Source: a virus. From it: a DNA stretch of 52,541 nt. Under the pieces are notes generated by a model. The model was not told the origin of the DNA and made no database searches. It was given only the letters and a program-made list of their open reading frames with translations. How positions within the stretch are numbered: position 1 is the first letter of the stretch; every line of letters begins with the position of its first letter. Below are positions 2,336 to 52,541 of the stretch, piece after piece. Made by a program: the position numbers and the translations under genes. Location: IMG/VR virus record IMGVR_UViG_3300029258_002096, positions 1 to 52,541 of that record; one strand, written 5' to 3'.

Positions 2336-2337
2336 GC

Positions 2338-2444: not shown

Positions 2445-2478
2445 GGCGAAACGAAATTATAAAAAGGAGAAAATTGCA

Positions 2479-3519: not shown

Positions 3520-3530
3520 CCCTGATTGGG

Positions 3531-3607
3531 GCATAACGGCTTGCGTTTAACCGGCAGAGGCAAGGACGTGGGCAGGGTGGCTGTCCGTGTTCTAACGCTG
3601 GTTATAC
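3531..3607 (+). other. attC-like site (77 bp)
   Basis: GCATAAC; GCGTTTAACCGGCAG vs CTG[T]CCGTGTT[C]TAACGC; GTTATAC. Confidence 0.8.
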
Positions 3608-3646
3608 GGGTTTGCCCTTTACCCTAAAAATATAAAGGAATGAATT

Positions 3647-3958
3647 ATGTGTAAACATAAAAGACTTGAATTGCGGGGGCATATCAGACCCGAAAATTTA
3701 TCAAAAAATGATATGTGGATTTCGGATTTATCTTTGGTTTGCATGGATTGTGGAGCACATTTATTGTATACCCCTAACAACCTTAAAAATATTATTAATA
3801 TTCCACATCCAGATAAATCTAATTGCAAACACCCATCAAATGTATTATCCTATGATTTGTGTGGTTTCGGAAGATGGACGTGTCTACAATGTGGGGAAAG
3901 AGGTATTTCATCTCCAGCATCTAAATTGGAGATAAGAACCTCTTGCAAACACGTATAA
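3647..3958 (+). CDS. cassette-encoded Cys/His-rich hypothetical protein
   Basis: AAAGGA RBS; CKH, CMDC and CLQC motifs; stop within inverse core GTATAAC. Confidence 0.7.
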   Translation: MCKHKRLELRGHIRPENLSKNDMWISDLSLVCMDCGAHLLYTPNNLKNIINIPHPDKSNCKHPSNVLSYDLCGFGRWTCLQCGERGISSPASKLEIRTSCKHV

Positions 3959-4021
3959 CGGACTGGTAATAACCTGAAAAACCGCTACACTGAATTTTAG
4001 GTTATTATACAGACGTTTAAT
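3953..4021 (+). other. degenerate attC-like site
   Basis: GTATAAC; GTAATAACCTGAAAA vs TTTTAGGTTATTATAC; right core degenerate (GTTTAAT). Confidence 0.5.
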
Positions 4022-4198: not shown

Positions 4199-4609
4199 AT
4201 GAAATATACTCAGGAAGTTGTTGATGCTATTGTAGCCAGCCTAAGAGAAGGCGTACCCATAAAAAAGGTATGCGATCTTGTGGATATTAGTGAGGAAACA
4301 TTTTATGCGTGGCAAAGAGAAAAACCTGAATTTTCTGAGGTTGTAAAAAAAGCGCGTGCTGATAAAATAAAAGATATTTTAAGCCATATACGTACAGCGG
4401 GTGTGGGTGAGACAAGGGTACAAGTTCAGTGCCCGGATTGCAAGGCTAAATTTGAAACAACAATCACTTTACCCACAAAGGCGTGGCAGGCATTAGCATG
4501 GATACTTGAACGAACGGAGAACGAGGACTTTGGACGTAGGTATCAAGTAGGCGGAGGCAAGGAACCCATTAAACATATTATAGAGTTTGTGGATGGAGAC
4601 GATACATAG
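4199..4609 (+). CDS. terS: terminase small subunit
   Basis: N-terminal HTH (IKKVCDLVDISEETFYAW...PEFSEVVKKAR), AWILER motif, overlaps terL; start set at ATG 4199. Confidence 0.85.
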   Translation: MKYTQEVVDAIVASLREGVPIKKVCDLVDISEETFYAWQREKPEFSEVVKKARADKIKDILSHIRTAGVGETRVQVQCPDCKAKFETTITLPTKAWQALAWILERTENEDFGRRYQVGGGKEPIKHIIEFVDGDDT

Positions 4610-5882
4610 GATAGTCATTCCTGGTTATACAAATCCCAAAACTGGAAAGAGACACGAAGAACAAAAGCGATTCGTTGAAAGTGCCACTAAAAGGAAAATC
4701 GTCAAAGCTGGAAGGCGTGGTGGCAAAACTATTGGGTGTGGGAAAATAGCATTACATGGGTTTAGAGATGGAAAGAGGGTATTATATGGAGCTCCTACAG
4801 TAGAACAGGTAGGGGCTTTTTGGCATTTCATTAATACGGTTTTAGAGCCTGTTATATCAGAGAAGATATTATTCAGGGACAAGAATTTACATATTATTGA
4901 AGTGCCAAATACGGATATTAGGATAAAGGCTAAAACGGCTTGGAATGCAGATACACTAAGGGGTGACTGGGCGGATATACTCATTCTTGACGAATTTCAA
5001 TTAATGAATGAAGACGCCTGGGAGATTGTTGGTGCTCCGATGCTTTTAGATAACAATGGTGATGCTGTTTTTATTTTTACCCCCCCAAGTTTTAGGATGA
5101 GGGGGGTTACTAAAGCCTTTGATCCCCGCCACGCTTCTAAAATGTTCAAAAAAGCACAGAAGGATACATCTGGTCGCTGGGAAGCATTTCATTTCACGAG
5201 TTACGCAAATCCATTTATTGACGAACGGGCCCTTGACGAAATTGCTATAGATATGACCCAACTTGCCTATAAGCAAGAAATCTTAGCCGAAGACATTGAT
5301 GACGTTCCCGGAGCCCTGTGGACACAAGCAATCATTGATAATACAAGAGTCAGTGAAGCACCAAGAATGAAAAGAATCGTTGTAGGTGTCGATCCCCAAG
5401 GAAAAAAGAAAGATTCATCGGAAACGGGTATTATTGTTGCTGGACTTGGGTATGATAATCATGGATACGTTTTGGCGGATTATTCTATTAATGCGAGACC
5501 GGAGGGGTGGGCTGAAAGCGTTACGCAAGCTTTTGAGGAAAACGAAGCAGACAGAGTTATCGCAGAAAAGAACTATGGTGGTGATATGGTCAAGAGTGTG
5601 ATTCAGTCAGCGGGGCCTAATTTACCCGTTAGATTGATAACAGCATCACGGGGCAAGACAATACGGGCCGAACCCATATCATTCCAATATGAAGAGGGAA
5701 ACGTACACCATGTTGGCATATTCCCAAAATTGGAAGATGAAATGTGTACCTATACACCCGGCAGCGGCTGGAGTCCCAATAGGATGGATGCCCTTGTTTG
5801 GGCGTTAAAGGAATTGTTACCCATAAAAGGCAGGGTATCTTCTTCTCCTGTCAAACTTGGTGAACCAAGACCCATAGATTAA
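4593..5882 (+). CDS. terL: terminase large subunit
   Basis: Walker A AGRRGGKT, Walker B ILILDE, nuclease VGVDP and NRMDALVW. Confidence 0.95.
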   Translation: METIHRIVIPGYTNPKTGKRHEEQKRFVESATKRKIVKAGRRGGKTIGCGKIALHGFRDGKRVLYGAPTVEQVGAFWHFINTVLEPVISEKILFRDKNLHIIEVPNTDIRIKAKTAWNADTLRGDWADILILDEFQLMNEDAWEIVGAPMLLDNNGDAVFIFTPPSFRMRGVTKAFDPRHASKMFKKAQKDTSGRWEAFHFTSYANPFIDERALDEIAIDMTQLAYKQEILAEDIDDVPGALWTQAIIDNTRVSEAPRMKRIVVGVDPQGKKKDSSETGIIVAGLGYDNHGYVLADYSINARPEGWAESVTQAFEENEADRVIAEKNYGGDMVKSVIQSAGPNLPVRLITASRGKTIRAEPISFQYEEGNVHHVGIFPKLEDEMCTYTPGSGWSPNRMDALVWALKELLPIKGRVSSSPVKLGEPRPID

Positions 5883-7438: not shown

Positions 7439-8791
7439 TTGGATATAAACATCTCGACTCGCCCCTTCAAGGTAAGATTGCGAAAACCCCAACCCCCTAA
7501 ACCCCAAAGACAGGCATCTGCAACATCGCAGACACGGGAAACCTACGAAAGTGGAATATCTATATTTAATGCCTATAATCCCCTGAAACACAACATGGGG
7601 GCCTACCGTGAATTGAGGGAAAAAATACCCTTCTTCAATGTAGCCATAAAGAAACTCGTACAGCTTATTGGTGACCCGATATTTGATTCTCCATCCGATT
7701 CCGTAAAAAAGAAAATAGAAGACTTTGTTCAAAAAGTTCAGGTAAATCGCTTTGGCAGAGGATTGGGTTCTTTCTTAGACGAATTAGAGGATTCAGCTTT
7801 TGAAGTGGGTGGTGGTTGGGGAGAACTTGTACCAACAAAAACAATGACAGATGTTCATCGTTTGAAAATAGCCTCTGCCGAATCTATGTGTTTTATAAAA
7901 GATGAAAAGACGGGCGAACTTGTTATCGGCACTTATAAAGACAATCATTTTATGCCACTGCCTGTTGAAAATATGGATTTGATTTATTACTTGGCTTTTG
8001 ATCGAAGACAGGGACATCCGCAGGGTTATAGCTTGCTTTATTCTTGTATGTGGCCGAGCCAGGCATTTTTGCGATGGGAAAAATCCTTTGAAAATCAAGT
8101 GCAGAGATTCGGGGATATATCTCTCGTCGGTGCTTTTGCCCCACCCGAGGGTGGAACCGTTGAGGAAGCAGATTATACAAGAGATAAATTCATGGAGCAA
8201 TTGGGTAAACTTTCAAAACTGAAAAGGCGCGGGAATGTAACCGATATCGGATTAAGTATACCGCCTGGTGGTACGTGGGATATAAAAACATTGGGCGCAG
8301 ATGCAAAGTTAATAGCAACCAAAGATTCCGTCAGAACGCTTTTAGAGCAATTGATCGCAAATACCGGCCTTCATCCTTCGTCCCTGGGAGTCCATTGGTC
8401 TACCTCCGAACGTATGTCGGTAATGCAAAATTTATTGCTAATGTCTAATCTCAACGCACAACGGGAACGGATCAATCCAATTGTTGAAAGAATTATCGAT
8501 ACCATGTTGGAGCTTACGGGTGATGCTGGAGCAGAATGGAGCATGAAATGGCCTGAAGTTATGTTATTGGGGGAAACCGAACGAGCCGATGCAAAAAAGA
8601 GCAATTGGGAAGCCATTAAAAATATGCTTGAAGCTCTTGAAATGGCTATTGCCTACGGATGGGCTGATGAAGAAAGTGCAAGGGAAACATTGGACAGAGA
8701 GGGTTTTGACGTAACTAAGTTACCGTCTAACTGGTATGCAAAGGTCAAAGAAAGATCGTATTTAGCAAGAATGGCAAGGGAAATAGAATAG
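7439..8791 (+). CDS. portal protein
   Basis: 450 aa between terL and gp7-like gene; TTG start with CGGAG RBS; size and synteny. Confidence 0.8.
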   Translation: MDINISTRPFKVRLRKPQPPKPQRQASATSQTRETYESGISIFNAYNPLKHNMGAYRELREKIPFFNVAIKKLVQLIGDPIFDSPSDSVKKKIEDFVQKVQVNRFGRGLGSFLDELEDSAFEVGGGWGELVPTKTMTDVHRLKIASAESMCFIKDEKTGELVIGTYKDNHFMPLPVENMDLIYYLAFDRRQGHPQGYSLLYSCMWPSQAFLRWEKSFENQVQRFGDISLVGAFAPPEGGTVEEADYTRDKFMEQLGKLSKLKRRGNVTDIGLSIPPGGTWDIKTLGADAKLIATKDSVRTLLEQLIANTGLHPSSLGVHWSTSERMSVMQNLLLMSNLNAQRERINPIVERIIDTMLELTGDAGAEWSMKWPEVMLLGETERADAKKSNWEAIKNMLEALEMAIAYGWADEESARETLDREGFDVTKLPSNWYAKVKERSYLARMAREIE

Positions 8792-13556: not shown

Positions 13557-14705
13557 ATGGCTTATACACCAAGAATTGACCCCATGAAAAGCTCTAAAGT
13601 TGTAGAGGCATGGTATCCCAAAGACGGACTCGAATCCGGTATGTATAAACATGCAGCTAAAGATGGCAAGTCTTTTACTATGTTTCTTGAGGAGCTGAAA
13701 TCTGAAAAAATGGGGCAGCAAACTATTTATGACGGGCTTTCGCTTTCTCAGATATTCGACAAAAAGGCAAAAATGAGAGCAAATGGCGAGACCCCCCCCC
13801 TAACTGCTTTTGAGGAAGGCTTGAAAGCATGTGGTATTCGTTTCGACGGTATCGGAACCGATAATATAGTCGGGAAGTTTTTCCAGTTTTCCGGAGCCGA
13901 CGTTCTTTTCCCCGAAGCAATTTCTACGCAAGTTTTTGCAGGTCGCAAAAAAGATAATATGGTTCCGATTTTTGCTGCTCGTGAAACCATGCTTGATTCA
14001 ATGACTTATTACAAAATTTACATTGAAACGGCTGAGGCGGATGAGCAAACTTCAAAATTAGAACCACGCGAAGAAATGAAGGAAACGAAAATCGTCGTTG
14101 GCAAACAGACGGTTACTCTTCAGAAATTCGGCACCTATTTGACACAGAGTTATGAAGATATTAAACAAATGCGCCTGAATATTTTTGCTGTTGCCCTTGA
14201 TCGAATTGGTTTACAGATTAAAGTTGATGAAACCGATGATATGTTTTATACTATGATTAATGGCGACGGCAATTCAAACACGCCGGGTGCTACTGCATCT
14301 GCCGATGCTTCGGGAGTAATTGATGGCGAGGAAGTGACGAAAGTTCGCACGATTATGAGTTCTCCGTATCAGGTTTCCGTACTTGTTGGCAAAAAGGCCG
14401 GTGTCCGTAAATGGATCAATGCTCTTGCGGATTATACAAATCCTTACGATATGCGAAGTTTCACCCAGGAGGTTGTGCCACAGTTAGTTATGCCAGTTAT
14501 GTACGAGTGGGATACCAGTACGATCACAACTTCCCATTTTTACGGTGTTGACAAAAATTACGGCATTGAGCATCTAACGATGGGTAGTGTATTGACCGAA
14601 ACCGAAAATCTAATCCGACAGCAAATCAAGGGTACTGCTATTAGTTATGCAGCGGGGCATGCAATAATTGACGAAAACGCTGTTTGTGATTTTGATTTTT
14701 CGTAA
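13557..14705 (+). CDS. major capsid protein (HK97 fold)
   Basis: 382 aa; synteny; KFGTYLTQSYEDIK...LDRIG...E-D-DMF pattern; strong AAGGAGG RBS. Confidence 0.85.
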   Translation: MAYTPRIDPMKSSKVVEAWYPKDGLESGMYKHAAKDGKSFTMFLEELKSEKMGQQTIYDGLSLSQIFDKKAKMRANGETPPLTAFEEGLKACGIRFDGIGTDNIVGKFFQFSGADVLFPEAISTQVFAGRKKDNMVPIFAARETMLDSMTYYKIYIETAEADEQTSKLEPREEMKETKIVVGKQTVTLQKFGTYLTQSYEDIKQMRLNIFAVALDRIGLQIKVDETDDMFYTMINGDGNSNTPGATASADASGVIDGEEVTKVRTIMSSPYQVSVLVGKKAGVRKWINALADYTNPYDMRSFTQEVVPQLVMPVMYEWDTSTITTSHFYGVDKNYGIEHLTMGSVLTETENLIRQQIKGTAISYAAGHAIIDENAVCDFDFS

Positions 14706-24086: not shown

Positions 24087-27000
24087 ATGCCTTTCGGGTT
24101 TGGCAGTATCGGTGGTGTGGGTGACATTGTTGCATTTGTTAAACTATCCGGAGCGGATAAATTTAATAACGATCTGGACCGCTTAAATCAACGTGTGTCT
24201 AATTCCGGTCAAGTAATGAACAGGGCTATGAATGCCACGTTGCTTGCAGGTGCTGCTGCATTTACGGCTGCGACGGTTGCTGCGTCGAAGTTTGAAGCAC
24301 AAATGGCAGATGTCAATACATTACTTGATGTATCCGAAAAAGAATTTGAAAATCTCAATCAAGGTGTACTGAACATTGCTAAAACTGTTCCCACTTCAAT
24401 GTCTACATTGACAAAGGGCTTGTATGATTTAATTTCCGCAGGGGCCGAATCTTCACAATCAATTTCTGCTCTCGACTTAGCCGCACGTGCCGCAACGGCT
24501 GGCATTTCTGGTGTTGATGTTGCAGTTAGGGCGGGCATGGCTACAATTAACGCCTATGCCTTAGATATTGGAGAATTGAGCAGAATTTATGATTTGCAAT
24601 TTTCAACGGTAAAAAAGGGTGTTTTGACGTATGCCGAGTTATCGAATGCAATAGGGAATGTTTTACCATCGGCCTCAAATTTAGGCGTTGTACTTGAAGA
24701 CCTATACGGTTCCATTGCAGCCGTGACAAAAGCCGGTATTGATGCTCAATCTGCCACAACTTATTTAGCACGCGCTTTTGAATCTATGACGGAAAACAGG
24801 GAGAAATGGGAAGCATTGGGAGTTGCGATATTTGACGCAACGGGCAAATTTAGGGGGTTAGAGCCAGTTATCGGAGATTTGGCAAAATCGCTACAGGGTG
24901 CTACGGTAGAGCAAAGAATAATGAAACTTGAAGCCCTTGATATGGAAAAACGTGCAGCTAAAGCAATTCTGACAATGGTCAATAATTATAAGGGATTCAA
25001 AAAGACACTTGATGCTGTAGCAGATTCACAAGGTGCAATGAATGATGCTTTTGAAAAACAGATGGATACATTTAAAGCGCAGGCTGGAATAATTAAAAAC
25101 AATCTTCAAGTTGCGTTTATCGAACTTGGCCGATCCGTACTTCCCGTTTTAACGGATATGTTTAGGGAATTAAATAAGCATCCAGAAACCATTCGTACTA
25201 TTGTCTCGGTTGTAGGGAAATTAGTAATAACTCTTGGTGGAGCTACTGCTGCGCTTAAGGGTGTTCGGCTTGCCATGTCTGCGGTTAAAGGGATACAAGC
25301 TTTGTGGATGGCTTCATTTGGCCCATTCGGTATAGCTATTGCAGGCGTAACGGCTGGATTAATTGCATTAAATGAAATTGCAAATAAACGCCATGAACAG
25401 GCTTTAGCGCAGATAGATGCAATAGGTGAAGAGATTAATGAAGTGCGGGTGCTTTCCTTGCGTTATGATGAATTGAAAGATAAGGCAGTATTAACAAGAG
25501 CAGAATCCGAAGAATTAAAAACAATAACAGAGAAATTAACAAAGGCATTTGAGGCACAGGGCTTAGACGTTTCAAATCTTACTGGAGCACTCACACAATT
25601 AACCCCCCTGTATTTAAAATTAAGAAAAATAGAGCTCCAGGAAGCTCTATCTGAAGTTGAAAGAAAAATTGGAGCTGTTGCCATGAAAACAAACGTCCTG
25701 GCAACAGCTCTTGGTGGCCCCATATCTCTGTTTAGCGGGCTTCGGGATATTGTAGATGACACACAAGCTGGAGCACTAAAGAGATTAAACAACCAAGCCG
25801 AAGATCTTAAAAGTAGATTGGAAGAACTTGAAAATCCACTTGCAACAACATCTACTGAAGTTGAAAATGTGGGCGATGTTTCAAAGAATGCTGGAGACAA
25901 AATATCCTCAACAATAAAACCTATTTATGATATGGCCATAAAGACAAAAGAATTAAAATCTGCTATGATAGATTGTGCCGATGCAACATTGCAACACGAT
26001 GAACACGTAAAAGCCTATGAAGAACATTTGAGAAAAGCAAACGATACAACCCAAAAAGCGAACAACAATTGGATCGACTTCGCCCGCCTCATTGGAGATG
26101 TAACAGACAGGATGGAGGGTGATTTCGCCCCTGCCATAGGCAATATCGCAAACCTTATTGCTTCATTTGCAAGTCCAAGTGCAACATTCTTGAACATTTT
26201 CAATATTTTTGGTGCGATCTTCGATGCCTTTACCGGCAAGACTGGAACGCTCAAAGTATCAATCGACGAACTAAAAGAGTCTTTCGGGGCTTTAGGTGAT
26301 GAGATCGAACGAGCGCAACAATCTGCTGAAGATTTAGGGAATGTTATCAGCTCTGCCCTTGCACAGCAAACAAGTCAAGTACTTGATGATACCTTGCAAC
26401 GCGCAGCCGATTTAGCTACGGAGATCAAAAGATTTGAACTCTTAGAAGTATCAGCCAGACGTCCATCTGGTTTGGGTGGCATTAATTGGGTAAATCCGTA
26501 TACTGAACGGCTTAAAGATTTGCGTATTGAATATGAAGCTACTCAAAAAGAAATAGAAGGTCTGACTAACAGCCTTCTTGAATTAAGCGATGCATTTCAA
26601 TTTGAGGTGGGATTTGAAAAACAGGCCGAGGATTTGGGAACCCTGACAGAACAAGCCTTAAAGATGAGAGATTATTTTGGTGACATTGAATGGCCTGGCC
26701 TTGAAACCCTTTTACAGGAAACCATTGACCAATCAAGAATTATGCTTGACGATCTTGATCCCACTTCACAAGCGTATGTTGATTTAAGCGATAGCATAAA
26801 AGAAGCAGAACTGGCTCTTGGCATACTCAATGGGACAATTGATCAAGAAACCCTTGATATAATAAAGAAAACCGAAAACGAAATAGAAGCATTAACTCAA
26901 GCAATTTCAGATTGGGAACAGGAACAGGCAAATATTGATGAACAACTAAAACGGGATATTGAGGGAATAAATAATGAAATAGAATCCTTAAATAAAACGA

Positions 27001-28103
27001 TAACCGATTTAAAACAACAGCGAATTGAAATTGACATACAGCTTGCTCAGGATATTCTGCCCTATCAAACAAAACTTTCTCAATTGCAGACTACATTAAT
27101 GGGTTTTCGTGAAATACCCTCAGTTGAAGGTATTGACTTCTATCAACTCTCAAAGGCGATTGACGAGTTAACGGGTCGGGTCAATAAATTGACCATTGAC
27201 TGGGGAAATATGCTTGATGTCATGTTCCAGGATTATGACCAGTTTGAAAAAGACATCCAAACAGCCACTTCCGCCATTGAAAAAATACTTTATTTTGATA
27301 TTGACCTTGAAACAACGACGGCAGACGAACAGATTGCAGGACTTATATTTAGGATGCAAGACTATTTAAAGACATTAAGTCCTGGTTCTAAGGCTTATGA
27401 AGATGCAAACAAGGCACTTGAAACCCTTACCCAAAAATTTGAAGACATGGGGGGTGAGCTTGATAAAGAAAAAGCCCTTGCGATTGAAACCGATGCAGTA
27501 GATTCTGCCATTGCAGATGCACAAACTATTATTGACAATTTCATCCTGGAGGCCGAAAGCAAAAAAGCCGAAATAGATATTGATATTATTGAGGCAGAAA
27601 ATAAAATCAGGACCCTAAAGGGTGATATTATCAGTTTGATAAATGAGGCCGAATCTCGCAAACTTGTCATAGATGCGAATATACAGGTTGCTCAATATAA
27701 GATAGAAACCTTGATAAACAAGCTATCGGAACTGAGAAGCAAAACAATTACTATTGATGTAAATGCACCGTCGGGAATGCATATAGGTGGCATTGTCGAA
27801 GCCCACCAGGGCCTTGTTCTTGGATCAACCTATAAGGGACGGAAAGAAGTTTTAATCAAGGGGCTTGAAGGGGAGGCGGTTATTCGTCCTGAAGTTGGAG
27901 ATATGTATTCCTCGAAACAATGGGAGCGTTTTAATAGAACGGGCAATCCTGCCGTTTTTGGGAATACGCAAGATACCGGCAGGGCGGTTGTTGTGATCAA
28001 TCAACCAGGTCCACGAACAAATGCACAAATATATCGAGATTCTATTTTACCGGAAAAACTTTATGCGGAACGATTTCTTGAACCGGCAGGAGACGTATTC
28101 TAA
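24087..28103 (+). CDS. tail tape measure protein (TP901-type)
   Basis: 1338 aa; FEAQMADVNTLL TP901-like core, hydrophobic middle, long heptad region. Confidence 0.95.
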   Translation: MPFGFGSIGGVGDIVAFVKLSGADKFNNDLDRLNQRVSNSGQVMNRAMNATLLAGAAAFTAATVAASKFEAQMADVNTLLDVSEKEFENLNQGVLNIAKTVPTSMSTLTKGLYDLISAGAESSQSISALDLAARAATAGISGVDVAVRAGMATINAYALDIGELSRIYDLQFSTVKKGVLTYAELSNAIGNVLPSASNLGVVLEDLYGSIAAVTKAGIDAQSATTYLARAFESMTENREKWEALGVAIFDATGKFRGLEPVIGDLAKSLQGATVEQRIMKLEALDMEKRAAKAILTMVNNYKGFKKTLDAVADSQGAMNDAFEKQMDTFKAQAGIIKNNLQVAFIELGRSVLPVLTDMFRELNKHPETIRTIVSVVGKLVITLGGATAALKGVRLAMSAVKGIQALWMASFGPFGIAIAGVTAGLIALNEIANKRHEQALAQIDAIGEEINEVRVLSLRYDELKDKAVLTRAESEELKTITEKLTKAFEAQGLDVSNLTGALTQLTPLYLKLRKIELQEALSEVERKIGAVAMKTNVLATALGGPISLFSGLRDIVDDTQAGALKRLNNQAEDLKSRLEELENPLATTSTEVENVGDVSKNAGDKISSTIKPIYDMAIKTKELKSAMIDCADATLQHDEHVKAYEEHLRKANDTTQKANNNWIDFARLIGDVTDRMEGDFAPAIGNIANLIASFASPSATFLNIFNIFGAIFDAFTGKTGTLKVSIDELKESFGALGDEIERAQQSAEDLGNVISSALAQQTSQVLDDTLQRAADLATEIKRFELLEVSARRPSGLGGINWVNPYTERLKDLRIEYEATQKEIEGLTNSLLELSDAFQFEVGFEKQAEDLGTLTEQALKMRDYFGDIEWPGLETLLQETIDQSRIMLDDLDPTSQAYVDLSDSIKEAELALGILNGTIDQETLDIIKKTENEIEALTQAISDWEQEQANIDEQLKRDIEGINNEIESLNKTITDLKQQRIEIDIQLAQDILPYQTKLSQLQTTLMGFREIPSVEGIDFYQLSKAIDELTGRVNKLTIDWGNMLDVMFQDYDQFEKDIQTATSAIEKILYFDIDLETTTADEQIAGLIFRMQDYLKTLSPGSKAYEDANKALETLTQKFEDMGGELDKEKALAIETDAVDSAIADAQTIIDNFILEAESKKAEIDIDIIEAENKIRTLKGDIISLINEAESRKLVIDANIQVAQYKIETLINKLSELRSKTITIDVNAPSGMHIGGIVEAHQGLVLGSTYKGRKEVLIKGLEGEAVIRPEVGDMYSSKQWERFNRTGNPAVFGNTQDTGRAVVVINQPGPRTNAQIYRDSILPEKLYAERFLEPAGDVF

Positions 28104-36519: not shown

Positions 36520-37056
36520 GTGAACAAGTCGAGTAAATTGTTAGCCTGCCCCGATGATTTGGTGAATGAACATTGGGATTATATAGAGAAAGTATTAGAG
36601 AATTATGCAGGCAAACCAATGTATTTACACATGATTGAATTTCATTATAAAACCGCCTTTAAACATGGTTGGAAACATGCCATACAAGAAAAGGCAGGCT
36701 TACGTGCCACAAGAGAGGAAGGTGACGTGACAGTAGACGAATTAACGGATTATGCATATAAAGATTTAGACGAGTATGAAAAAATTGTCGGATTTGAAAC
36801 AAATGAATCTTTCAGAATTGGTTGGACGATGGCACGGATAACAAATAAACAATTGAAGATACCAACGGACACAGAAAGGCTCGACTGGCTGGAAGAACAG
36901 TATGGGCTTCACAGGGAAGTCGAAATTACCTATGTAGTCGATGGGTACGAGATTGAATTCACCCATGACGGTAACCCGACGGACGGTAAGCGATACCACG
37001 GGAGGACGCTTCACGAGGCGATAGACGCGGCGAAAAGGGGGCAGCTGGATAAATGA
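36520..37056 (+). CDS. mosaic hypothetical protein containing a cassette-derived first module
   Basis: GTTAGCCTGCC 36540-36550 vs GGCAGGCTTAC 36693-36703 (10/11); C-terminal TDTERLDWLE module. Confidence 0.65.
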   Translation: MNKSSKLLACPDDLVNEHWDYIEKVLENYAGKPMYLHMIEFHYKTAFKHGWKHAIQEKAGLRATREEGDVTVDELTDYAYKDLDEYEKIVGFETNESFRIGWTMARITNKQLKIPTDTERLDWLEEQYGLHREVEITYVVDGYEIEFTHDGNPTDGKRYHGRTLHEAIDAAKRGQLDK

Positions 37057-37229
37057 AATTATATAAAGTACCCAATCACAGGGCGAGTAAGATTCAGGTG
37101 GTGGAATCATCGTCGCCCCCATCCGTTTGTTCTGTGTGCTGTGGTACGCCCGTCGTGGTGCGAGGACACACGACACATTGGTATGAGTGCCAGAAGTGCG
37201 GTAAGGCATGTGACACACAGAACGGTTAA
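37053..37229 (+). CDS. zinc-ribbon protein fused across an attC right arm (58 aa, not in ORF track)
   Basis: Manual translation MKLYKVPNHRASKIQVVESSSPPSVCSVCCG...CQKCGKACDTQNG; ATGA overlap. Confidence 0.6.
   Translation: MKLYKVPNHRASKIQVVESSSPPSVCSVCCGTPVVVRGHTTHWYECQKCGKACDTQNG
37129..37223 (+). mobile_element. 95-bp mini-cassette
   Basis: GTTCTGTGTG 37129-37138 is the exact reverse complement of CACACAGAAC 37214-37223; upstream GCCCCCATCCGTTT resembles the arm at 49871-49885. Confidence 0.65.
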
Positions 37230-40628: not shown

Positions 40629-41030
40629 ATGCGACTCTGGCACGAAGATATAATCGATAAGCTACCAGACCGTAAAACGTCTGGCGATCCCAAGAAAAGC
40701 CAGTTGAATGGCCTGCATCGAGAATGCTGTGGAATGCGTGGAAAGGGCTGGGGCAAGAAAGGCGGAGTCGTCGGGTATGTCTGGAAATATCCCTACGCAT
40801 ATCTTTATTTGTATCATAAAAAAGTTATGCATGAATTGTTATGTCGGGGTTATAATATAGATAGACGTTGGCTTGATTCCTTTTATCGAGGGAAAAAACT
40901 GGGTTATGATTATTCACTCGAAATATCTGGACACTTAAAGTTTGACAGAACGCCTATTTTCCCAGAACACGACGAAGCCTATTTGCAAGAATGTATAGAC
41001 AACCTTAGAAAGAAAGGAGTAGAATTATGA
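40629..41030 (+). CDS. TIGR02328-like protein (pyrimidine-dimer glycosylase/DenV-related superfamily)
   Basis: MRLWH...[15 protein letters not shown]...YH..VM.E...RGY...W....YRGK...PEHD..YL.EC..NL..KG. Confidence 0.85.
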
Positions 41031-41623
41031 AAAAGCAGATTGAACTAAGGAATCGCTTTACTAACGAAATTATAGTAGCTGGTAAATATGCGGATATCAG
41101 GTGGGCTGTTGAGGAAAACAGGGCTGATCTCATGGGAGCCAACCTCCGGGGAGCCAACCTCCAGGAAGCCAACCTCCGGGGAGCCAACCTCCAGGGAGCC
41201 AACCTCCAGGGAGCCAACCTCCAGGGAGCCGACCTCCGGGGAGCCAACCTCCAGGGAGCCGACCTCCGGGGAGCCAACCTCCAGGGAGCCAACCTCTGGG
41301 GAGCCGACCTCCGGGGAGCCAACCTCTGGGGAGCCAACCTCCGGGGAGCCAACCTCCAGGGAGCCAACCTCCGGGAAGCCGACCTCCAGGGAGCCGACCT
41401 CCGGGGAGCCGATCTTGATTTTTCTTGCTGGCCCCTATGGTGTGGGTCGTTCGGTGTTATTGTTGACATAGACAAAATTTATCAACTTGCCTTACATATA
41501 TGCAAGTGTAGGGTTGAGGGAAGTAAAGAAGATAAAGAGGAGTTTGCCAAGATCAAAGATTTCCTCCGCCCTTATGCGAACAAGTTTCATCGAATTGGAC
41601 AAGATGTTAAAGGTGTAGAATGA
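41027..41623 (+). CDS. pentapeptide repeat protein
   Basis: about 20 A[N/D]L[R/Q/W][G/E] repeats followed by [10 protein letters not shown]. Confidence 0.95.
41136..41415 (+). repeat. 15-bp tandem repeat (GGAGCC[A/G]ACCTC[C/T][A/G]G)
   Basis: DNA-level repeat underlying the pentapeptides. Confidence 0.9.
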
Positions 41624-44327: not shown

Positions 44328-44524
44328 GTCTTTTAGATGCTTTACAACAACAGATTAATCGCTTAGAAATGCTTTTGAGGGTAGCGCATCAAATAATCGA
44401 CGACCAACAAGAACGGCTTGCTCTTTTGGAACAAGAGGATGAATGGAGGGAGGAAAAGGCGTTTTTAGATGCACAGGATCGCTTGTTCAATGAAGGTGTT
44501 CGACAAGTACACGGAGAAACGTAA
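44324..44524 (+). CDS. coiled-coil hypothetical protein
   Basis: ATGA overlap. Confidence 0.6.
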   Translation: MSLLDALQQQINRLEMLLRVAHQIIDDQQERLALLEQEDEWREEKAFLDAQDRLFNEGVRQVHGET

Positions 44525-45366
44525 TGGCCAAGGTAAGAAGTTTAGAGATAGAAACATCTTTCGGCGGTGTAATTTCTGAAGCCCCCTTTGAAAACGTTAA
44601 GCCACTTTATCGAGATAAAATTATTATCGATATTGAAGAAGGGGACGATCCAGCCGAAATCAGAAAAAGTTATCGCAAGCTTTTGCAAGATGAACAAATC
44701 TGTGAATTTGATCTTTTGAAAAACAAATTGAAGTCCGATCTCCTTCAAATCCAATATCAAAATATCAAATTTAGAGAAAAAGGTGGAAAACAATATCCGC
44801 GAGTTTCATCCATTATTTATTGGATGAAAGACTGGCGAATCAGTGAATCCGATCTTGCTCAATATGCTGCTCGTGGTCATCTTATTCATAAGCTCTGTGA
44901 ATATTTTATCTATAATCAAATTTGGTTATCGTTAGAAGAGTTGGCAGAAAAAGACCCAGAATGTAATAAAGATATTACATTAATGCTCAGTGGGTCGCTT
45001 AAGCTCTCTGTGGATGATTGTAGTCATAAACAGTTTTTTGAAACACATGGTAAGGATTTCCAGTTTGATTTTGTTGAGGAAACCGTTTTCAACGAAGAAT
45101 ATTTTTATACCGGATGTTTCGACGGAGAAGGATTTTATAAAGGTAAAAAATCAATCATTGATCTCAAAACGGGTTCCTGGGAATGGAAACAGTTGGCAGC
45201 GTATGCGCGATGCAGGGATAAAATCGAACAATTGGTTATTTGTCCTGTTGGTCCTAACGATAACAAAAGTGGCGTGAAAAAACCCGTTGTTTGTACGAAC
45301 ATTGACATGGAATTTAATAATTTTTTGAAGGATAGGGCAGAGTTCAAAAAAAGATTTGGAATCTAA
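44524..45366 (+). CDS. PD-(D/E)XK exonuclease-like recombination protein
   Basis: YPRVSSI...RGHLIH...GCFDG...IIDLKTG...QLAAY. Confidence 0.8.
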   Translation: MAKVRSLEIETSFGGVISEAPFENVKPLYRDKIIIDIEEGDDPAEIRKSYRKLLQDEQICEFDLLKNKLKSDLLQIQYQNIKFREKGGKQYPRVSSIIYWMKDWRISESDLAQYAARGHLIHKLCEYFIYNQIWLSLEELAEKDPECNKDITLMLSGSLKLSVDDCSHKQFFETHGKDFQFDFVEETVFNEEYFYTGCFDGEGFYKGKKSIIDLKTGSWEWKQLAAYARCRDKIEQLVICPVGPNDNKSGVKKPVVCTNIDMEFNNFLKDRAEFKKRFGI

Positions 45367-47405: not shown

Positions 47406-47918
47406 ATGTCCAAGAGAAAAGAAATAACAGATTTACCATTCGGGAAAGAAAAGATTGTAAGGCTTGACTGGCGAAAGCATGAAAAACGAATGGATGAAAA
47501 ATTTAGTATATTTCTAAAATTAGACCGCAACCTAATCTGTGAAAAATGTAATAAACCATATTTCATTCAAGATAATTTAAAGATTCCTCCCTCTATCCAG
47601 TGTAGCCATTATATAGGAAGAACCAAACGAAACACACGGTGGAGTCCGACGAATTGTTTTTGTCATTGTACCGGATGTCACCAATATCTTGGAAACAATC
47701 CACACGAATTCAGGAAATGGGTTTTAGATTACAGATTTCATGGATGTGTAAATAGGCTAATGATAATGGAACATTTTGGAAACGAGAAATTTAGAGGAGA
47801 TCGCGGTATCATTGAATTGTGGATTGAACGAAGGCTGGCCGAGGTCTTACCGACATGGCCAGTATTGGACTACCCTGTTTTAGATGAAATATATTACAAA
47901 TTAGGGATGAAAGAATAA
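47406..47918 (+). CDS. NinG-like HNH recombination endonuclease
   Basis: CEKC...QCSHYIGR...TRWSPTNCFCHCTGCHQY. Confidence 0.75.
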   Translation: MSKRKEITDLPFGKEKIVRLDWRKHEKRMDEKFSIFLKLDRNLICEKCNKPYFIQDNLKIPPSIQCSHYIGRTKRNTRWSPTNCFCHCTGCHQYLGNNPHEFRKWVLDYRFHGCVNRLMIMEHFGNEKFRGDRGIIELWIERRLAEVLPTWPVLDYPVLDEIYYKLGMKE

Positions 47919-48179
47919 ATGAAAATATTGGTTAAATGTGATTACTGCGGAAAAATGTTTTTAAAGAAAGAGTGGCAAGTAAAAACGTGTCGATTCCATT
48001 TTTGTTGTCCTCCGCATTTTTATTTATGGCGAGTTAACAAGCGTACTAATGGTCGTCCGGCTACGAGAAAATTTGAACGAATTAATAATAAACAGGTATA
48101 TTTCAGGATTACATCGAAGAGAGTCGGTCTTGCAGTTGGCCGACAGATGACGCGGTATTGCAAGGAGACGGGAAGCTAA
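47919..48179 (+). CDS. Cys-rich hypothetical protein
   Basis: CDYCGKMF...FCC. Confidence 0.55.
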   Translation: MKILVKCDYCGKMFLKKEWQVKTCRFHFCCPPHFYLWRVNKRTNGRPATRKFERINNKQVYFRITSKRVGLAVGRQMTRYCKETGS

Positions 48180-48182
48180 ACC

Positions 48183-48761
48183 ATGCGAGACACGGAATCA
48201 TACACCCAGACCCAAGAAATCCCGACAGTCGGGATATATGGGGCAAATACGGACGATCTCTTTGGGGCTCCGCCCCCGACTTGCGAATACCGATTCTGTG
48301 GTAAACCCATTCCCTCAGACAGGCTTCAGCGTCATGGGAAATACTGCTGCGACGAACACGGTGTACTTGAAAGAAGGTATCGGGCAGAAGATAGAAAGCA
48401 AAACGCCGTCCAAGAACGGCGGGAAGAGTTCCGTGAAGAAGCTGAGGAATTTTTGCGTCAAAATCCCGAAGTGCTAAAAGTCTTTGTCGCCTTAGCTCTT
48501 TTTTGTAAACGTAATGGGACAAAAGTCGGGGCAAAGGCTATCGTTGAAGTGATTCGCTGGTTTCGGAAATTTAATGGAAATCAGTTTAGAGAAATAGCCC
48601 TCATCTTGGAGGGGCTTGGCGAAATCCGGTCAGGTGGGCCGTATAAATTAAATGATCATTACACCAGATATTTTCGATTAATTGCCGAAGAGGAAGAGCC
48701 TGAGTTGGTTGGGTTTTTTGAGGACAGAGGAAAGAAAAAAAGCGGAGGAGAAAATGGATAA
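48183..48761 (+). CDS. hypothetical protein with zinc-binding N-terminus
   Basis: CEYRFCGK...KYCCDEH; helical C-terminal domain. Confidence 0.6.
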   Translation: MRDTESYTQTQEIPTVGIYGANTDDLFGAPPPTCEYRFCGKPIPSDRLQRHGKYCCDEHGVLERRYRAEDRKQNAVQERREEFREEAEEFLRQNPEVLKVFVALALFCKRNGTKVGAKAIVEVIRWFRKFNGNQFREIALILEGLGEIRSGGPYKLNDHYTRYFRLIAEEEEPELVGFFEDRGKKKSGGENG

Positions 48762-48936
48762 TTTTACAAAATACGAAACTGGATTAAAGGATGATCTTAT
48801 TAGGTTGCAAATTCCGTTACGCACAATAGAAGTTCTTATGGTTGTGTTTAAATCGATATATAAGCAGGGGGTGATAGATGGGATGGAGGAAAGCATAAAA
48901 AAATTTAGAGAACCAATCACAGAAGATAGAAGTTAA
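48754..48936 (+). CDS. hypothetical protein
   Basis: GGAGGAG RBS; ATG 48754. Confidence 0.55.
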   Translation: MDNFTKYETGLKDDLIRLQIPLRTIEVLMVVFKSIYKQGVIDGMEESIKKFREPITEDRS

Positions 48937-49415
48937 TGCCAAAACGTCAAACAGATACTGAAATATTAGACCAAGCTTGGTTTCAGGATATGTCATTGTC
49001 GTCAAAGGCTATTTGGTGGTTTTTGGAAAAGCGGGTGGATGTGGCCGGAATATGGAAATTAGATATAATCCAAATGAGACGTATTCTCAAATGTAAAATA
49101 AACATCGAACGCTTTTTAAGGGAAGTGAATAAAGACTACGACAAAATAACGGGTGAAAAAATAGATAAAAAAAGAGTCATACTTATAAACGGTGGCGCAA
49201 AAATATGGGTCGTAAACTTTCTCGCCTTCCAATGGGGAAACAGTAATAGCGTCGTCGATTTAAGATACGGTGCCGTGCGATCTGGCTTAAAAAAAATACA
49301 CGAACACGGTCTTCTGTCAATGGCATTAAAGGAAGGGTTTCTAAGGGTTCGGAAGGGTTCGGAAGGGGTAGAAGAAGAAAAAGAAATAGAAAAAGAAATA
49401 AAAAGACTTATCTAA
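48936..49415 (+). CDS. putative replication initiator/organiser N-terminal-type protein
   Basis: KR..DT....WF..S...K..W.FL...D.AGIW pattern; acidic/basic tail. Confidence 0.6.
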   Translation: MPKRQTDTEILDQAWFQDMSLSSKAIWWFLEKRVDVAGIWKLDIIQMRRILKCKINIERFLREVNKDYDKITGEKIDKKRVILINGGAKIWVVNFLAFQWGNSNSVVDLRYGAVRSGLKKIHEHGLLSMALKEGFLRVRKGSEGVEEEKEIEKEIKRLI

Positions 49416-49530
49416 TATCTCTTATTATATATTTTAAATTATTGTAGATATTAGATGAGCTAAAGCTCAGGAGAAAAATAATGGATAAAAAAGATGGTTG
49501 GTTGATAACCATTAAAACAACTGCGAATAA

Positions 49531-49600
49531 ATATAACGCCGGGATCACCGGCAGGAAGGAGCGGAGCGCATGACTGTCCGTGTGAATCCCGATGTTATAT
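49531..49600 (+). other. attC-like site (70 bp)
   Basis: ATATAAC; GGGATCACCGGCAG vs CTG[T]CCGTGTG[A]ATCCC; GCGGAGCGC centre; GTTATAT. Confidence 0.8.
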
Positions 49601-49992
49601 GTCCCGCGTGCGGTTGGCATGGTCCGCTGACACAAACCGACAATGGGGTCTGTCCACGGTGTGAATATGAGGTAAACGGCGGCGAGCCCTACAGGCTGAT
49701 GACGCTAGCCGAACTTCGCGAGTCAGAACATGGGGCCACATGGTGTGATGTAGACATGCGCGAGTTTCTGCGCGCGGTGGCTGAGGTAGAAGCAGATAAC
49801 GTCAAGCGTCAGGTAGCCGTCTCGCGTCGGCAGACCAACAGCGCTCGTGAACGCGGCCCTTCATGTTGTAGCCCTCCATCCGCTTGTTCGGCATGCCCTA
49901 CGTGTGGCCGCAGCAAGCCGGATTGGGCGGAGTATTGCTCTGAGGAATGTCGCTATGAGGACGAAACGGGGCATCCTGGTTGTGAATACTGA
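49570..49992 (+). CDS. Cys-rich ORF reading through two attC-like sites
   Basis: ATG inside attC 49531-49600; CPACG, CPRC and CPTCG modules. Confidence 0.55.
   Translation: MTVRVNPDVICPACGWHGPLTQTDNGVCPRCEYEVNGGEPYRLMTLAELRESEHGATWCDVDMREFLRAVAEVEADNVKRQVAVSRRQTNSARERGPSCCSPPSACSACPTCGRSKPDWAEYCSEECRYEDETGHPGCEY
49794..49892 (+). other. degenerate attC-like site
   Basis: AGATAACGTCAAGCGTCAGG...GCCCTCCATCCGCTTGTTCGGC; left part parallels 50384-50402. Confidence 0.55.
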
Positions 49993-50022
49993 GCGTCAAC
50001 TATTCGAGAATCTCGAACAGTT

Positions 50023-50080
50023 GCCGAACGGTTAGTTTCAGCGGTGCGCTTTTTGCATCCGCTGCAAACTTTTGTTATAC
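50023..50080 (+). other. attC-like site (58 bp)
   Basis: AGTTTCAGCGGTGC 50034-50047 pairs 14/14 with GCA[T]CCGCTG[C]AAACT 50055-50070; GCCGAAC/GTTATAC ends. Confidence 0.9.
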
Positions 50081-50107
50081 GGCGAACTTAACTAACAGGA
50101 GAAAACA

Positions 50108-50389
50108 ATGGAAAACAATAATCACTTAACACTTAAATGGGGCACACTGAAATCATGGAACTTTAAAGGCAATGAAGAAGCGTGCAAATTATTAAAACGT
50201 TACGGGGAAATCGGTTCATCATTCTCAGCGATGGCGCAAAATGATACGCCAGAACAAAAGGAAATAATTTGCAAGTTAATAGATTTGACACCAGGAGAAA
50301 TATATCTTGATTGGGACGGTGAATACGTTTCAAAAGAAAAAGCAAAAGAATATGTAATGAATTACGGCAAAGAAAAACAAGCCGTATAA
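50108..50389 (+). CDS. cassette-encoded hypothetical protein
   Basis: AGGAG RBS; stop inside GTATAAC. Confidence 0.8.
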   Translation: MENNNHLTLKWGTLKSWNFKGNEEACKLLKRYGEIGSSFSAMAQNDTPEQKEIICKLIDLTPGEIYLDWDGEYVSKEKAKEYVMNYGKEKQAV

Positions 50390-50440
50390 CGTCAAGGGTC
50401 AGGCGCGGCTTTAGCCGTCGCCTGAATCCGCTGGTTCGGC
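50384..50440 (+). other. attC-like site (57 bp)
   Basis: GGGTCAGGCGCGGCT vs AGCCG[T]CGCCTG[A]ATCC; GTATAAC/GTTCGGC ends. Confidence 0.85.
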
Positions 50441-50469
50441 TCCGGTTGGACTGGTGGAGGAGAGGACCA

Positions 50470-50976
50470 ATGAATCCAAAAGAAACACAACGCCGAGAAG
50501 AGATTGGTAAGATCGTTGCCAGCCTTGAACGGTTTGGGAAAATAGGCTGGTGGCAATTTGCGGCCTATCAACAGAAGAAATGGAGATTTGAACTTATATT
50601 ATATGTTATTGATATACTTTACGAAACAGAAAACTTAAGGAGGCGTATCCAGCATTTAGTTGAACAAAAAGAAATGGGCCAACTATACGGGGCGCTGACT
50701 TATTTTATTGATAAATATGCCGGAGAATATTCGGAGACACAGGGTCAAGAACAAAAGCAAGCCGCAAAGGAATGGGCCGACAAAATAGATATACCCATCG
50801 GCCAAAATCTTAAGTCAGACGATCAAATCCGGCTTGAAGGAGAACTTAAAAAACGCCAGCAGAGAGCGGATCAATATTTGCAGGACGGGGACATACATGG
50901 ATACAAAGACCTAAAGCGACAAATAAATAAAATAGAAATCCAGTTGAAGCGAATGGAAAAGCTTCAAAAATTTTAA
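50470..50976 (+). CDS. helical hypothetical protein
   Basis: GAGG RBS; ATG 50470. Confidence 0.6.
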   Translation: MNPKETQRREEIGKIVASLERFGKIGWWQFAAYQQKKWRFELILYVIDILYETENLRRRIQHLVEQKEMGQLYGALTYFIDKYAGEYSETQGQEQKQAAKEWADKIDIPIGQNLKSDDQIRLEGELKKRQQRADQYLQDGDIHGYKDLKRQINKIEIQLKRMEKLQKF

Positions 50977-51011
50977 GGAGGTACTGTTATACGTTTTCTT
51001 AGGAGGACTGA

Positions 51012-51425
51012 ATGGAAAATATACCTGAAAAAATATATTTACAAGTTGACCCTGAAAATGAACAACCAGAAAGTTTTGATGATTTGGCGGAAATAACATG
51101 GTGCAGAGATAAAATTAATGATAACGATATTGAATATGAATTAAGCGGGGTGGAATCGGGTCAGCTTGATATATTGTTAGCTGCCCGTTGTGCCACTTGT
51201 AAGCATTGGGGAGGGGATAAAAAACAATTAATGAAAGTACTTAATGAATATGATATTGAAACTATAAAAAAATATTTAGATGTTAAAGAAGGATGGGCAA
51301 TAGATGGAAAATGTAAAGAATTAATATGTGAATTAATATTTTATGCCTATGGGGCAGGGGTTGATGAAGTAGAGACACCTGCTGGTTTTAGCTGTAATCT
51401 TTATGAATCAGATAAGGGCAGCTAA
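51012..51425 (+). CDS. fusion protein spanning an attC right arm
   Basis: N-terminal IPEKIYLQ...TWC...DIEY module plus cassette module CATCKHW...; stop in AGCTAAC. Confidence 0.7.
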   Translation: MENIPEKIYLQVDPENEQPESFDDLAEITWCRDKINDNDIEYELSGVESGQLDILLAARCATCKHWGGDKKQLMKVLNEYDIETIKKYLDVKEGWAIDGKCKELICELIFYAYGAGVDEVETPAGFSCNLYESDKGS

Positions 51426-51616
51426 CGTCCAGTAATAACCGGCTGAAAGGACTAAGTGATGGATAGAAATCAAGTTATTGAAATTTTGGCAGAATTGCGA
51501 GAAACGGCAGATTACTTACCTACTGACCAAAAATATTTGGATGCTCTTGAACACGCACAGAACTTATTAGAAGAGGGCGGTGCGGAGCAAGGTCCGCGTT
51601 CTGCCGATGGTTCACC
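51420..51616 (+). other. expanded or hybrid attC-like site containing a gene start
   Basis: left arm GTAATAACCGG, right arm GG[T]CCGCGTT[C]TGCCGATG then GTTCACC; arms pair only partly. Confidence 0.5.
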
Positions 51617-51812
51617 AGTGGATGTGCCTGGGGAAAGTGCGGGACTTCAAGACGGGGTGGTGGCTATTGAAAAGAAATTACTTGATACAATTTACGCACA
51701 GATAAAAGGTGTTATTGATAATATGGAACTGCATCCAAAACAGTGTGGATATAAGTGCGCCCTATATGATACTTTTGAAAAATTGAAATTAATTTATGGG
51801 GTGGAGTCTTGA
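51456..51812 (+). CDS. fusion protein spanning an attC right arm
   Basis: GPRSADGSP segment encoded by the arm. Confidence 0.6.
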   Translation: MMDRNQVIEILAELRETADYLPTDQKYLDALEHAQNLLEEGGAEQGPRSADGSPVDVPGESAGLQDGVVAIEKKLLDTIYAQIKGVIDNMELHPKQCGYKCALYDTFEKLKLIYGVES

Positions 51813-51816
51813 AGTT

Positions 51817-52046
51817 GGTGAACGTTTAGGTTCATGTGCCAAATGGAGGACAAAATGAAGAAAAGGAAAATTTGGAATCGTTGTATTTATTGCGGCAGGT
51901 TTATTGGATTGGGTGAGTTTATGAGGGGTGAGGTAGAAACTGATTTTACACCAGACACTCACTTTACATACGAAAAAATTGAACATTATCACAAAAAATG
52001 TAAAGAAGAATGTGGGGATTTGGTCACGTGCTAACTTTGGTTATGC
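51817..52046 (+). other. expanded attC-like site enclosing a whole ORF
   Basis: GGTGAAC; GGTTCATGTGCC vs GG[T]CACGTG[C]TAAC; GTTATGC 52040-52046. Confidence 0.6.
51855..52034 (+). CDS. small Cys/His protein inside an attC loop
   Basis: GGAGG RBS; RCIYCGRFI...HKKC. Confidence 0.65.
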   Translation: MKKRKIWNRCIYCGRFIGLGEFMRGEVETDFTPDTHFTYEKIEHYHKKCKEECGDLVTC

Positions 52047-52049
52047 TTA

Positions 52050-52382
52050 GTGAATACCGGCCACAAGCCGGTGCTTATGAATGGCCAAAGGGCCAGAGGA
52101 GCGAAGATGAACGATAGATTAGACTGGCAACACAAGGGTGGGGTGCTTGACATACCAGATAGACATTTTGTCTATAATGTAAACTTTGATGCTGATGAAC
52201 CTTACATAACAATTGTTGATGCAGAAGATCCTCACACTGAAGAAAAAAAGATGTTAGTACCGAAGTCACTCGCATACTATTTAAGCACGCATGCTTGTGG
52301 ATCACGGAAAATGATGGAGAATTTTATAGAGCAAGGACGGCATGAGGTGCGGGTGGGGTTTCAAAGGCTATTGGGATTATAG
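52050..52382 (+). CDS. hypothetical protein (probable cassette gene)
   Basis: follows GTTATGC core; followed by truncated attC-like CACTAAC...ATAACCGGCAAAAAC...GTTTTTG[T]CC 52395-52437. Confidence 0.6.
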   Translation: MNTGHKPVLMNGQRARGAKMNDRLDWQHKGGVLDIPDRHFVYNVNFDADEPYITIVDAEDPHTEEKKMLVPKSLAYYLSTHACGSRKMMENFIEQGRHEVRVGFQRLLGL

Positions 52383-52457
52383 GCCCTTTGGCAACACTAA
52401 CATGAATAATAACCGGCAAAAACAAGCGTTTTTGTCCAAACATAAAGGAGATGAGCA

Positions 52458-52541
52458 ATGAAAAGTAAGGCCGCAAAGTTAGCGTTTTTGTCCGTGTTCG
52501 TTATTGGGTTATTCGGCATTACGGGGTGTGGCGAAAAGAAC
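52458..52541 (+). CDS. lipoprotein, truncated by window end
   Basis: MKSKAAKLAFLSVFVIGLFGITGC lipobox. Confidence 0.6.
   Translation, partial: MKSKAAKLAFLSVFVIGLFGITGCGEKN

Follow-up and report, generated by a model that had tools for sequence, protein, structure and literature searches.

Integron cassettes are commonly seen as whole promoterless genes, each with a recombination site following it, that reside in bacteria beside an integrase. Here we ask how a phage came to carry one open reading frame that runs through two zinc ribbons and through sequence resembling such recombination sites. The window, i.e. the whole stretch of 52,541 nt that was analysed, corresponds to contig C10:4936-57387 of a 2.38-Mb genome bin and belongs to a tailed phage whose genes are all + strand genes, among them the large terminase (4587-5882), portal (7439-8791), major head (13557-14705), tape measure (24087-28103) and a NinG/Rap-like gene (47406-47918). 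The ORF of interest (P0001, 140 aa) was called at 49570-49992 on the + strand, with its stop at 49992. It starts inside a 70-nt imperfect palindrome (49531-49600) and continues through a zinc ribbon, a 99-nt decayed palindrome (49794-49892) and a second zinc ribbon.

Two features elsewhere on the contig should be mentioned for orientation. At the contig start the same 125-codon open frame occurs twice, 3.2 kb apart (C10:1525-1899 and C10:4700-5074, the latter including window positions 1-139), and this doubled frame may stem from duplication of a cassette, from a terminal repeat or from repetition in the assembly. Inside the ORF 41027-41623, at least 18 tandem copies of a 15-nt unit (41069-41460, 56% GC) encode a 5-residue protein repeat.

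The fused ORF itself sits in a GC-rich island (56.6% GC vs ~40% in the surroundings), whose GC switch falls at ATATAAC|GCC (49537). Near-identical DNA of this island is present in GC-rich contigs, and positions 49861-50031 share ~96% nucleotide identity with L002, a GC-rich metagenomic contig, the homology between the two terminating at GCCGAAC. A search of a phage collection for relatives of the phage lacking the insert gave no match, and the flanking 159-aa protein has no relative in viral contigs or among the 72 host-family genomes searched.

A first-pass annotation, made from the letters alone, had described the ORF as two cassettes stitched together with two attC sites, and had proposed that each module be searched separately for different partners. 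A search of 1.84 billion representative proteins returned 66 relatives of the ORF, and different protein families match module A (residues 8-74) and the linker with module B (78-140). Module A (49597-49793, +), a zinc ribbon of the form CPxCGW...CPRC followed by a helix, belongs to a family of mostly stand-alone phage proteins: about 60 of the 66 relatives match residues 8-74 only, most of them being stand-alone proteins of 71-90 aa, and its matches include P0004 (82 aa, 66% identity) and P0002 (74%). The C-terminal part alone is matched by three relatives, i.e. P0005 (71 aa), which aligns to residues 78-140 with 71% identity, P0003 (79 aa), which has its last 47 residues in common with the ORF and a different N-terminus, and P0040 (50 aa), which shares the module B core. 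This core (49893-49989, +), a zinc ribbon CPxC...YCSEEC...ETGHPGCEY, shows 96% identity to P0003 and 71% to P0005, and its DNA is ~96% identical to L002. Both modules are thus found elsewhere, alone or with other partners, and none of the 66 relatives from the 1.84 billion representatives combines A with B. A search of genome contigs gave no relative of P0005, and Pfam and PHROGs gave sub-threshold zinc-ribbon matches only for the ORF.

Concerning the upstream palindrome, site S1 (49531-49600, +, 70 nt) is an intact attC-type hairpin with boxes ATATAAC / GTTATAT that pair at 7/7 positions. It scores 13/13 in the geometry test described below, its 3' arm bearing A16, T20 and T24 as extrahelical bases, and folds better than shuffled sequences (z -3.6 and -3.9). 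Its 5' arm corresponds to L002 66-90 at 23/24 nt, and it is paired where classical attC sites have an unpaired central spacer. The apical region holds the ribosome binding site AGGAAGGAG (49553-49561) and the start ATG (49570-49572, +) of the ORF, which align with GAAGGAGG..ATG of the relative L003. The claim that the ATG lies within an attC-type site is therefore borne out.

The boundary between the two cassettes is marked by the box AGATAAC (49794-49800, +), read from the sequence, which complements GTTATAT (49594-49600) at 6/7 positions. Many cassettes of the phage use the TAA of this kind of box as their stop codon (GTA TAA C at 50384, GCA TAA C at 2731 and 3142), and at the equivalent boundary L003 has AGATGAAC, with TGA in frame. 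In the fused ORF the TAA of the box is out of frame, hence there is no stop at the A/B boundary.

The same box opens site X1 (49794-49892, +, 99 nt), whose 3' box is GTTCGGC (49886-49892) and which is translated as the linker DNVKRQ...SACS. X1 shares homology with the sequence coding for the N-terminal part of P0005, without the segment that bears the ATG in the site of P0005, and both its ends match those of the intact hairpin X2 (AACGTCAAGSGTCAGG ... ATCCGCTKGTTCGGC), these end motifs being found in the genome only, or almost only, on C10. X2 (50384-50440, +, 57 nt; GTATAAC...GTTCGGC) has T23, scores 12/13 and is the folded, intergenic relative of X1. X1 itself scores 6/13 and folds no better than shuffles (z +0.1 and +0.3); since it fails the geometry test, it is regarded as a decayed site. 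The ORF had been said to contain an entire degenerate attC, and this is a fair description of X1, which keeps its AAC and GTT boxes and has lost the fold. On reading the sequence, no in-frame ATG, GTG or TTG occurs between 49800 and module B.

After the stop of the ORF (49992) come a small hairpin and then site S3 (50023-50080, +, 58 nt; GCCGAAC...GTTATAC), an intact attC-type hairpin with C16 and T23, a score of 13/13 and a fold z of -2.5, which resembles an intrinsic terminator and whose 5' box is complementary over 8 bp to GTTCGGCA (49886-49893). The next cassette gene (50108-50389, +, 93 aa) lies between GTTATACGGC (50074) and GCCGTATAAC (50381-50390), which are complementary over 10 bp. 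Rfam gave no match on 47500-52541, which says little because Rfam has no attC model.

To assign these palindromes to a class we relied on the geometry of validated attC sites, in which one arm only has extrahelical bases, at position 16, at 23 or 24 and optionally at 20, 6 bp separate the first from the last extrahelical base, and the last one is a conserved T; in the bottom strand, the one that recombines, the AAC triplet and the extrahelical bases occupy opposite arms (Nivina et al. 2016, PMC5027507). An MFE fold scan requiring AAC:GTT pairing mixed true and chance matches and missed S3 and X2, and it was replaced by a geometry scan. The latter is a home-made 13-pair test derived partly from four of the phage's own sites, hence the argument rests on sites independent of those four, on strand bias, on T as the last extrahelical base and on two controls. 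On C10 the scan finds seven sites, all of them + strand (coding-strand) matches, three of the seven not being among those used to set it up. The remaining 2.32 Mb of the genome give seven matches over both strands, with no clusters, which sets the expectation at 0.087 per C10 strand. One match, at 52395-52514, straddles the edge of C10, the last 89 window bases (52453-52541) being off C10 according to the genome record, and is to be disregarded.

When seven related contigs chosen by protein homology alone (L002, L009, L010, L012, L016, L020 and L022) are added to C10, the eight phage-type contigs together show 40 coding-strand sites, of 54-142 nt, vs 3 on the other strand. The last extrahelical base, which the scan leaves free, is T in 39 of the 40 sites and in 16/16 control sites. 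The first is C in 20, A in 11, G in 8 and T in one, vs A in 11 and G in 4 of the controls, G being the usual base in attC. As for the controls, the Vibrio phage MK672802, which carries a real integron, yields 15 matches, each directly after a cassette gene, and the Tetrasphaera phage TJE1, with IntI1-validated attCs (Qi et al. 2023, PMC9892861), yields two, at 13/13 and 11/13; all control matches are on the strand opposite the genes. S1, S3 and X2 also fall within the attC length range (57-141 nt) and carry an AAC inverse core and a GTT core, and X1 keeps both boxes. The phage palindromes are attC sites by structure.

A second regularity links neighbouring sites. Their facing boxes are complementary at 4/4 free positions in 17 of 29 pairs, for a chance expectation of 1 in 256, and in 11/13 control pairs. 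Examples next to the fused ORF are GTTCGGCA (49886) with TGCCGAAC (50022) and GTTATACGGC (50074) with GCCGTATAAC (50381), and the inverted repeats covary, as seen for GTTCTGTGTG/CACACAGAAC, GTTCGGCA/TGCCGAAC and, in L011, GTTCGGTTT/AAACCGAAC. The motifs CCGYTTGTTC and GAACGGTTA occur within the window only at 37053-37229 and 49880/50026. More generally, a survey of GTT...AAC inverted repeats shows that complementary boxes of 8-11 bp surround numerous small genes or parts of genes (e.g. 2036/2335, 2438/2728, 6948/7281, 44925/45254, 50074/50381, 51176/51416), each AAC box being followed by an imperfect palindrome that runs to the next GTT box.

The orientation of these sites differs from that of classical attCs. 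In the window and the seven related contigs the classical polarity, with the recombining bottom strand opposite the ORF and the attC downstream of its gene, does not apply; the recombining-strand geometry lies on the coding strand (40 sites vs 3), so that the sites are mirror images of classical attCs, with a polarity opposite to that of all validated attCs tested. Bottom-strand geometry on the coding strand places the crossover triplet in the AAC just after the preceding gene, and consequently a cassette consists of a hairpin and the gene downstream of it. This explains why ribosome binding sites and start codons lie inside hairpins, as in S1, L010 198-314, L002 713-819 and the X-type sites of L009-L011. 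Cassette A is then S1 plus the zinc-ribbon module (49537-49799, +), and cassette B the X-type site plus the second zinc ribbon (49800-50028, +), with the stand-alone 71-aa P0005 as its counterpart. It had also been claimed that neither module has its own start. This stands for module B, in view of the lack of in-frame start codons after 49800, and falls for module A, for which S1 is the start region: as the hairpin belongs to the downstream gene, module A has its own start and only module B depends on read-through.

Mobility is seen for one such unit. The P0005 cassette occurs as a 100% identical block of ~244 bp in L009, L010 and L011, which come from different samples, and runs from one AAC to the next AAC between unrelated flanks; mobility among unrelated phage contexts, with AAC limits, therefore holds for this 71%-identical sister of cassette B. 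Assembly contigs from four runs of three studies branch at 49537, 49589, 49803/49864, 50413 and 50446-50466. Taken together, the limits of the shared blocks, the GC switch and the branch points fit a crossover in the coding-strand AAC.

An enzyme that would perform this crossover was sought in the phage and its host. The best match to the integron integrase model TIGR02249 reaches 87 bits vs a cut-off of 265 and none is on C10; an integron integrase was found neither on C10 nor in the 98%-complete bin, and ~72-73 genomes of the host family gave no match at E<=1e-30. The bin has three tyrosine recombinases only, on C1, C3 and C4, and the scan shows no cluster of sites near them or elsewhere in the host genome. 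The partial viral contig L016 likewise gave no tyrosine recombinase. The arrangement of a complete integron, with intI, attI and Pc beside the array, is hence not present, and what is found is at least two close attC sites without an integrase nearby, as in a CALIN, though with mirror-image polarity: S1, S3 and X2 all lie within 910 bp. Since the carrier is a tailed phage without integron integrase, we speak of a CALIN-like array rather than an integron. Within it the frame is open over 49570-49992 across AGATAAC and X1, and its halves belong to separate families, as in a fused cassette; the description of the ORF as two cassettes with two attC-type sites accordingly holds.

Both modules retain all Cys ligands, and pN and pS are 0.136 and 0.77 for module A vs L003 and 0.076 and 0.70 for the module B core vs L011, i.e. 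both are under strong purifying selection. For the linker, the 25 codons between the modules, pN is 0.255 vs a pS of 0.175, the silent positions being unusually conserved; a pN above a low pS points to constraint that acts on the DNA rather than on the protein. The AlphaFold model (mean pLDDT 73.7; 75-92 in module A, ~50 in module B) shows a confident zinc ribbon and long helix over residues 1-90 and a poorly modelled module B. The first half of the linker forms a confident helix that extends module A, which suggests that the linker may not be neutral. Foldseek against the PDB gave no match at E<=0.001, and an Atlas structure search gave viral hypothetical and zinc-ribbon leads only, all below 0.9, so that none of the structure or family searches pointed to a function.

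Further arrays and composite ORFs were observed in the phage and its relatives. A second array lies beside the terminase genes (1975-4010), with intact sites at 2338-2444 (107 nt) and 3531-3607 (77 nt) and small genes between complementary 8-10-bp boxes of the types GTTATG... and ...CATAAC, and three more sites lie upstream of the window (C10:48-104, 3580-3656 and 4365-4470). In ORFs 2752-3147 and 3184-3519 an internal GC-rich box GTTATGCC(G/T)GGCCGGG (2942, 3337) complements the terminal GGCATAAC, and in the first of them AAC-GG-GTT, at 2936, precedes the box and resembles a collapsed site; both are probably further stitched ORFs. In ORFs 51012-51425 and 44524-45366 an internal 11-bp box (GTTAGCTGCCC at 51176; GTTATCGTTAG at 44925) complements the AAC box at the stop (51416; 45254), and their C-terminal parts look like separate cassettes. 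ORF 37053-37229 (58 aa) begins with SKIQVV...SSSPPSVCSV, a shortened relative of the X1 linker, and continues with a different zinc ribbon between the perfect 10-bp pair GTTCTGTGTG / CACACAGAAC. An X-type leader peptide (MKRDSG.GGKRQDQPLRQDTDSARE...) is found on at least four unrelated C-terminal modules, the switch being at the GTT box, in L009, L010, L011, L016 (4025-4492), L020 (1190-1486) and L022 (701-982). Finally, the motif (T)AATAACCGGC occurs shortly after several AAC boxes (3148-3175, 3959-3985, 51426-51445, 52400-52420), sometimes with no full site after it, and may mark a truncated site family.

Returning to the fused ORF, we consider it likely that it is a fusion of two adjacent cassettes in a phage-borne, integrase-less, mirror-image array of integron type. 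The simplest account of the join, and the most likely one, is decay at one boundary, by which two cassette genes became one. Small deletions would have taken away both the stop and the second start: the stop would have been lost at the A/B box, which reads AGATAAC where L003 has AGATGAAC with its TGA, and X1 would have lost the segment bearing the ATG together with its hairpin geometry. Translation from the ATG in S1 would then read X1 as a linker of ~25 residues and go on into module B. Such read-through would be possible because the 3' arm of a site of this kind is coding sequence already, and for the same reason mirror polarity would make fusions easy. An IntI-like enzyme acting in trans may move the cassettes, and the 140-aa product is presumably made.

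The first-pass annotation had gone further and proposed an exon-like use of cassettes to assemble zinc-binding multi-domain proteins. In its full form this would mean that the phage regularly combines cassettes through translated attC linkers, the A-B product being selected and functional. Part of this proposal agrees with the data, as other ORFs also hold internal GTT boxes that complement terminal AAC boxes (37129/37214, 44925/45254, 51176/51416, 2942/3141 and 3337/3530), at least four different C-terminal modules carry the X-type leader, about one third of the module-A relatives carry extra N- or C-terminal segments, the Cys ligands are complete in both modules, and the fused form is the sole form of the ORF sequence in four runs from three studies (sediment and seawater metagenomes). 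However, the A+B combination is unique to this ORF when compared with the 66 relatives, the linker is without protein-level constraint, small deletions at one boundary account for the join, and sister cassettes with similar sites share leaders anyway, as in the Vibrio VCRs. Regular adaptive assembly thus appears unlikely for this ORF, though it is the strongest of the competing explanations.

Our initial reading, an ordinary mosaic insert with chance palindromes, is contradicted by the covarying boxes, the geometry scan and the controls. A broader version of it attributes the locus to ordinary phage mosaicism: homologous or illegitimate recombination would have fused the genes, and the palindromes would act as terminators, RNase sites or translational hairpins that have nothing to do with integron-type recombination. 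That explanation leaves the extrahelical bases at 16 and 23/24 with T in 39/40 sites, the strict strand bias, the complementary boxes of neighbouring sites and the 100% identical AAC-bounded unit in three unrelated contexts without a cause, nor does it explain why the same scan recovers validated attCs; we find it improbable, even if GC-rich contigs hold DNA nearly identical to that of the GC-rich island around the ORF, S3 resembles an intrinsic terminator, the hairpins are on the mRNA strand and hold a ribosome binding site and ATG, and no integrase occurs on C10, in the bin or in the family genomes. An assembly artefact, in which unrelated genomes were joined at repeated hairpins so that the ORF or its setting is chimeric, is very improbable. 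De Bruijn contigs of 4/4 runs do break at 49537-49568 and 50413-50466, where shared words have depths of 60-100 vs 16-20, and in two runs the block 49539-50446 has ~2x the depth of its flanks. On the other hand, the complete ORF with its ribosome binding site lies within single contigs in all four public runs (49539-50446 or 49539-51500), which means that the A-B join is not a product of the assembler, and the depths to the left and right of S1 agree in two runs (17.9/19.5 and 15.9/17.4). The left-flank link passes through a repeated 30-nt word, so the left junction alone depends on the original assembler.

The fusion reading can be placed beside known systems. CALINs occur in virulent phages such as TJE1 of Tetrasphaera (Qi et al. 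2023, PMC9892861). That of TJE1 likewise has attC-type hairpins between small same-strand genes in a tailed phage whose genome lacks an integrase, but its bottom-strand geometry is opposite the genes, as in bacteria, and here it is on the coding strand, with sites that overlap gene starts and are in some cases translated. Rare fused gene cassettes are known from class 1 integrons (PMC4670013), where neighbours also become one ORF after the intervening site has decayed. In those fusions an attC that is part of the upstream cassette has been truncated or lost, whereas the phage keeps a 99-nt unfoldable site as a translated linker that belongs to the downstream cassette; the setting is moreover a phage, and the cargo zinc ribbons instead of resistance genes. 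With the sedentary integrons of Vibrio and the MK672802 array the phage shares boxes of the ATAAC...GTTAT type, extrahelical bases at 16/20/24 as in S1, near-identical site families across different cassettes, as seen for VCRs, and box-to-box complementarity. Arrays of the Vibrio type differ in having IntI, attI, Pc, top-strand genes and attC downstream of the gene, none of which was found here. The mobile regulatory cassettes of T4-type phages called PeSLs, reportedly described by Arbiol et al. in 2010, are said to have conserved stem-loops that flank small accessory genes and mediate modular shuffling, and to be promoter plus stem-loop repeats that recombine by homology, without AAC/GTT boxes, extrahelical geometry or box complementarity. 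Small accessory phage genes between conserved stem-loops are thus common to both; the boxes, the extrahelical-base geometry and the box complementarity set the present phage apart.

The locus hence has the structural grammar of integrons, with reversed polarity, in a tailed phage, where ribosome binding site and start codon lie in the hairpin, and it offers a decayed boundary at which two cassettes would have merged into a single two-domain protein, the former recombination site serving as linker. This raises the question of which recombinase serves mirror-image sites. Surveys that assume the classical gene-to-attC orientation would mis-assign the boundaries of such cassettes. Tentatively, and with doubt slightly outweighing confidence, we propose that tailed phages of sediment and seawater carry their own mirror-image integron cassette system without a linked integrase, in which the hairpin overlaps the gene start and one lost stop fuses neighbours, so that cassette shuffling may double as domain shuffling for small zinc-binding proteins. 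If general, this would be a cheap route by which phages arrive at new domain combinations.
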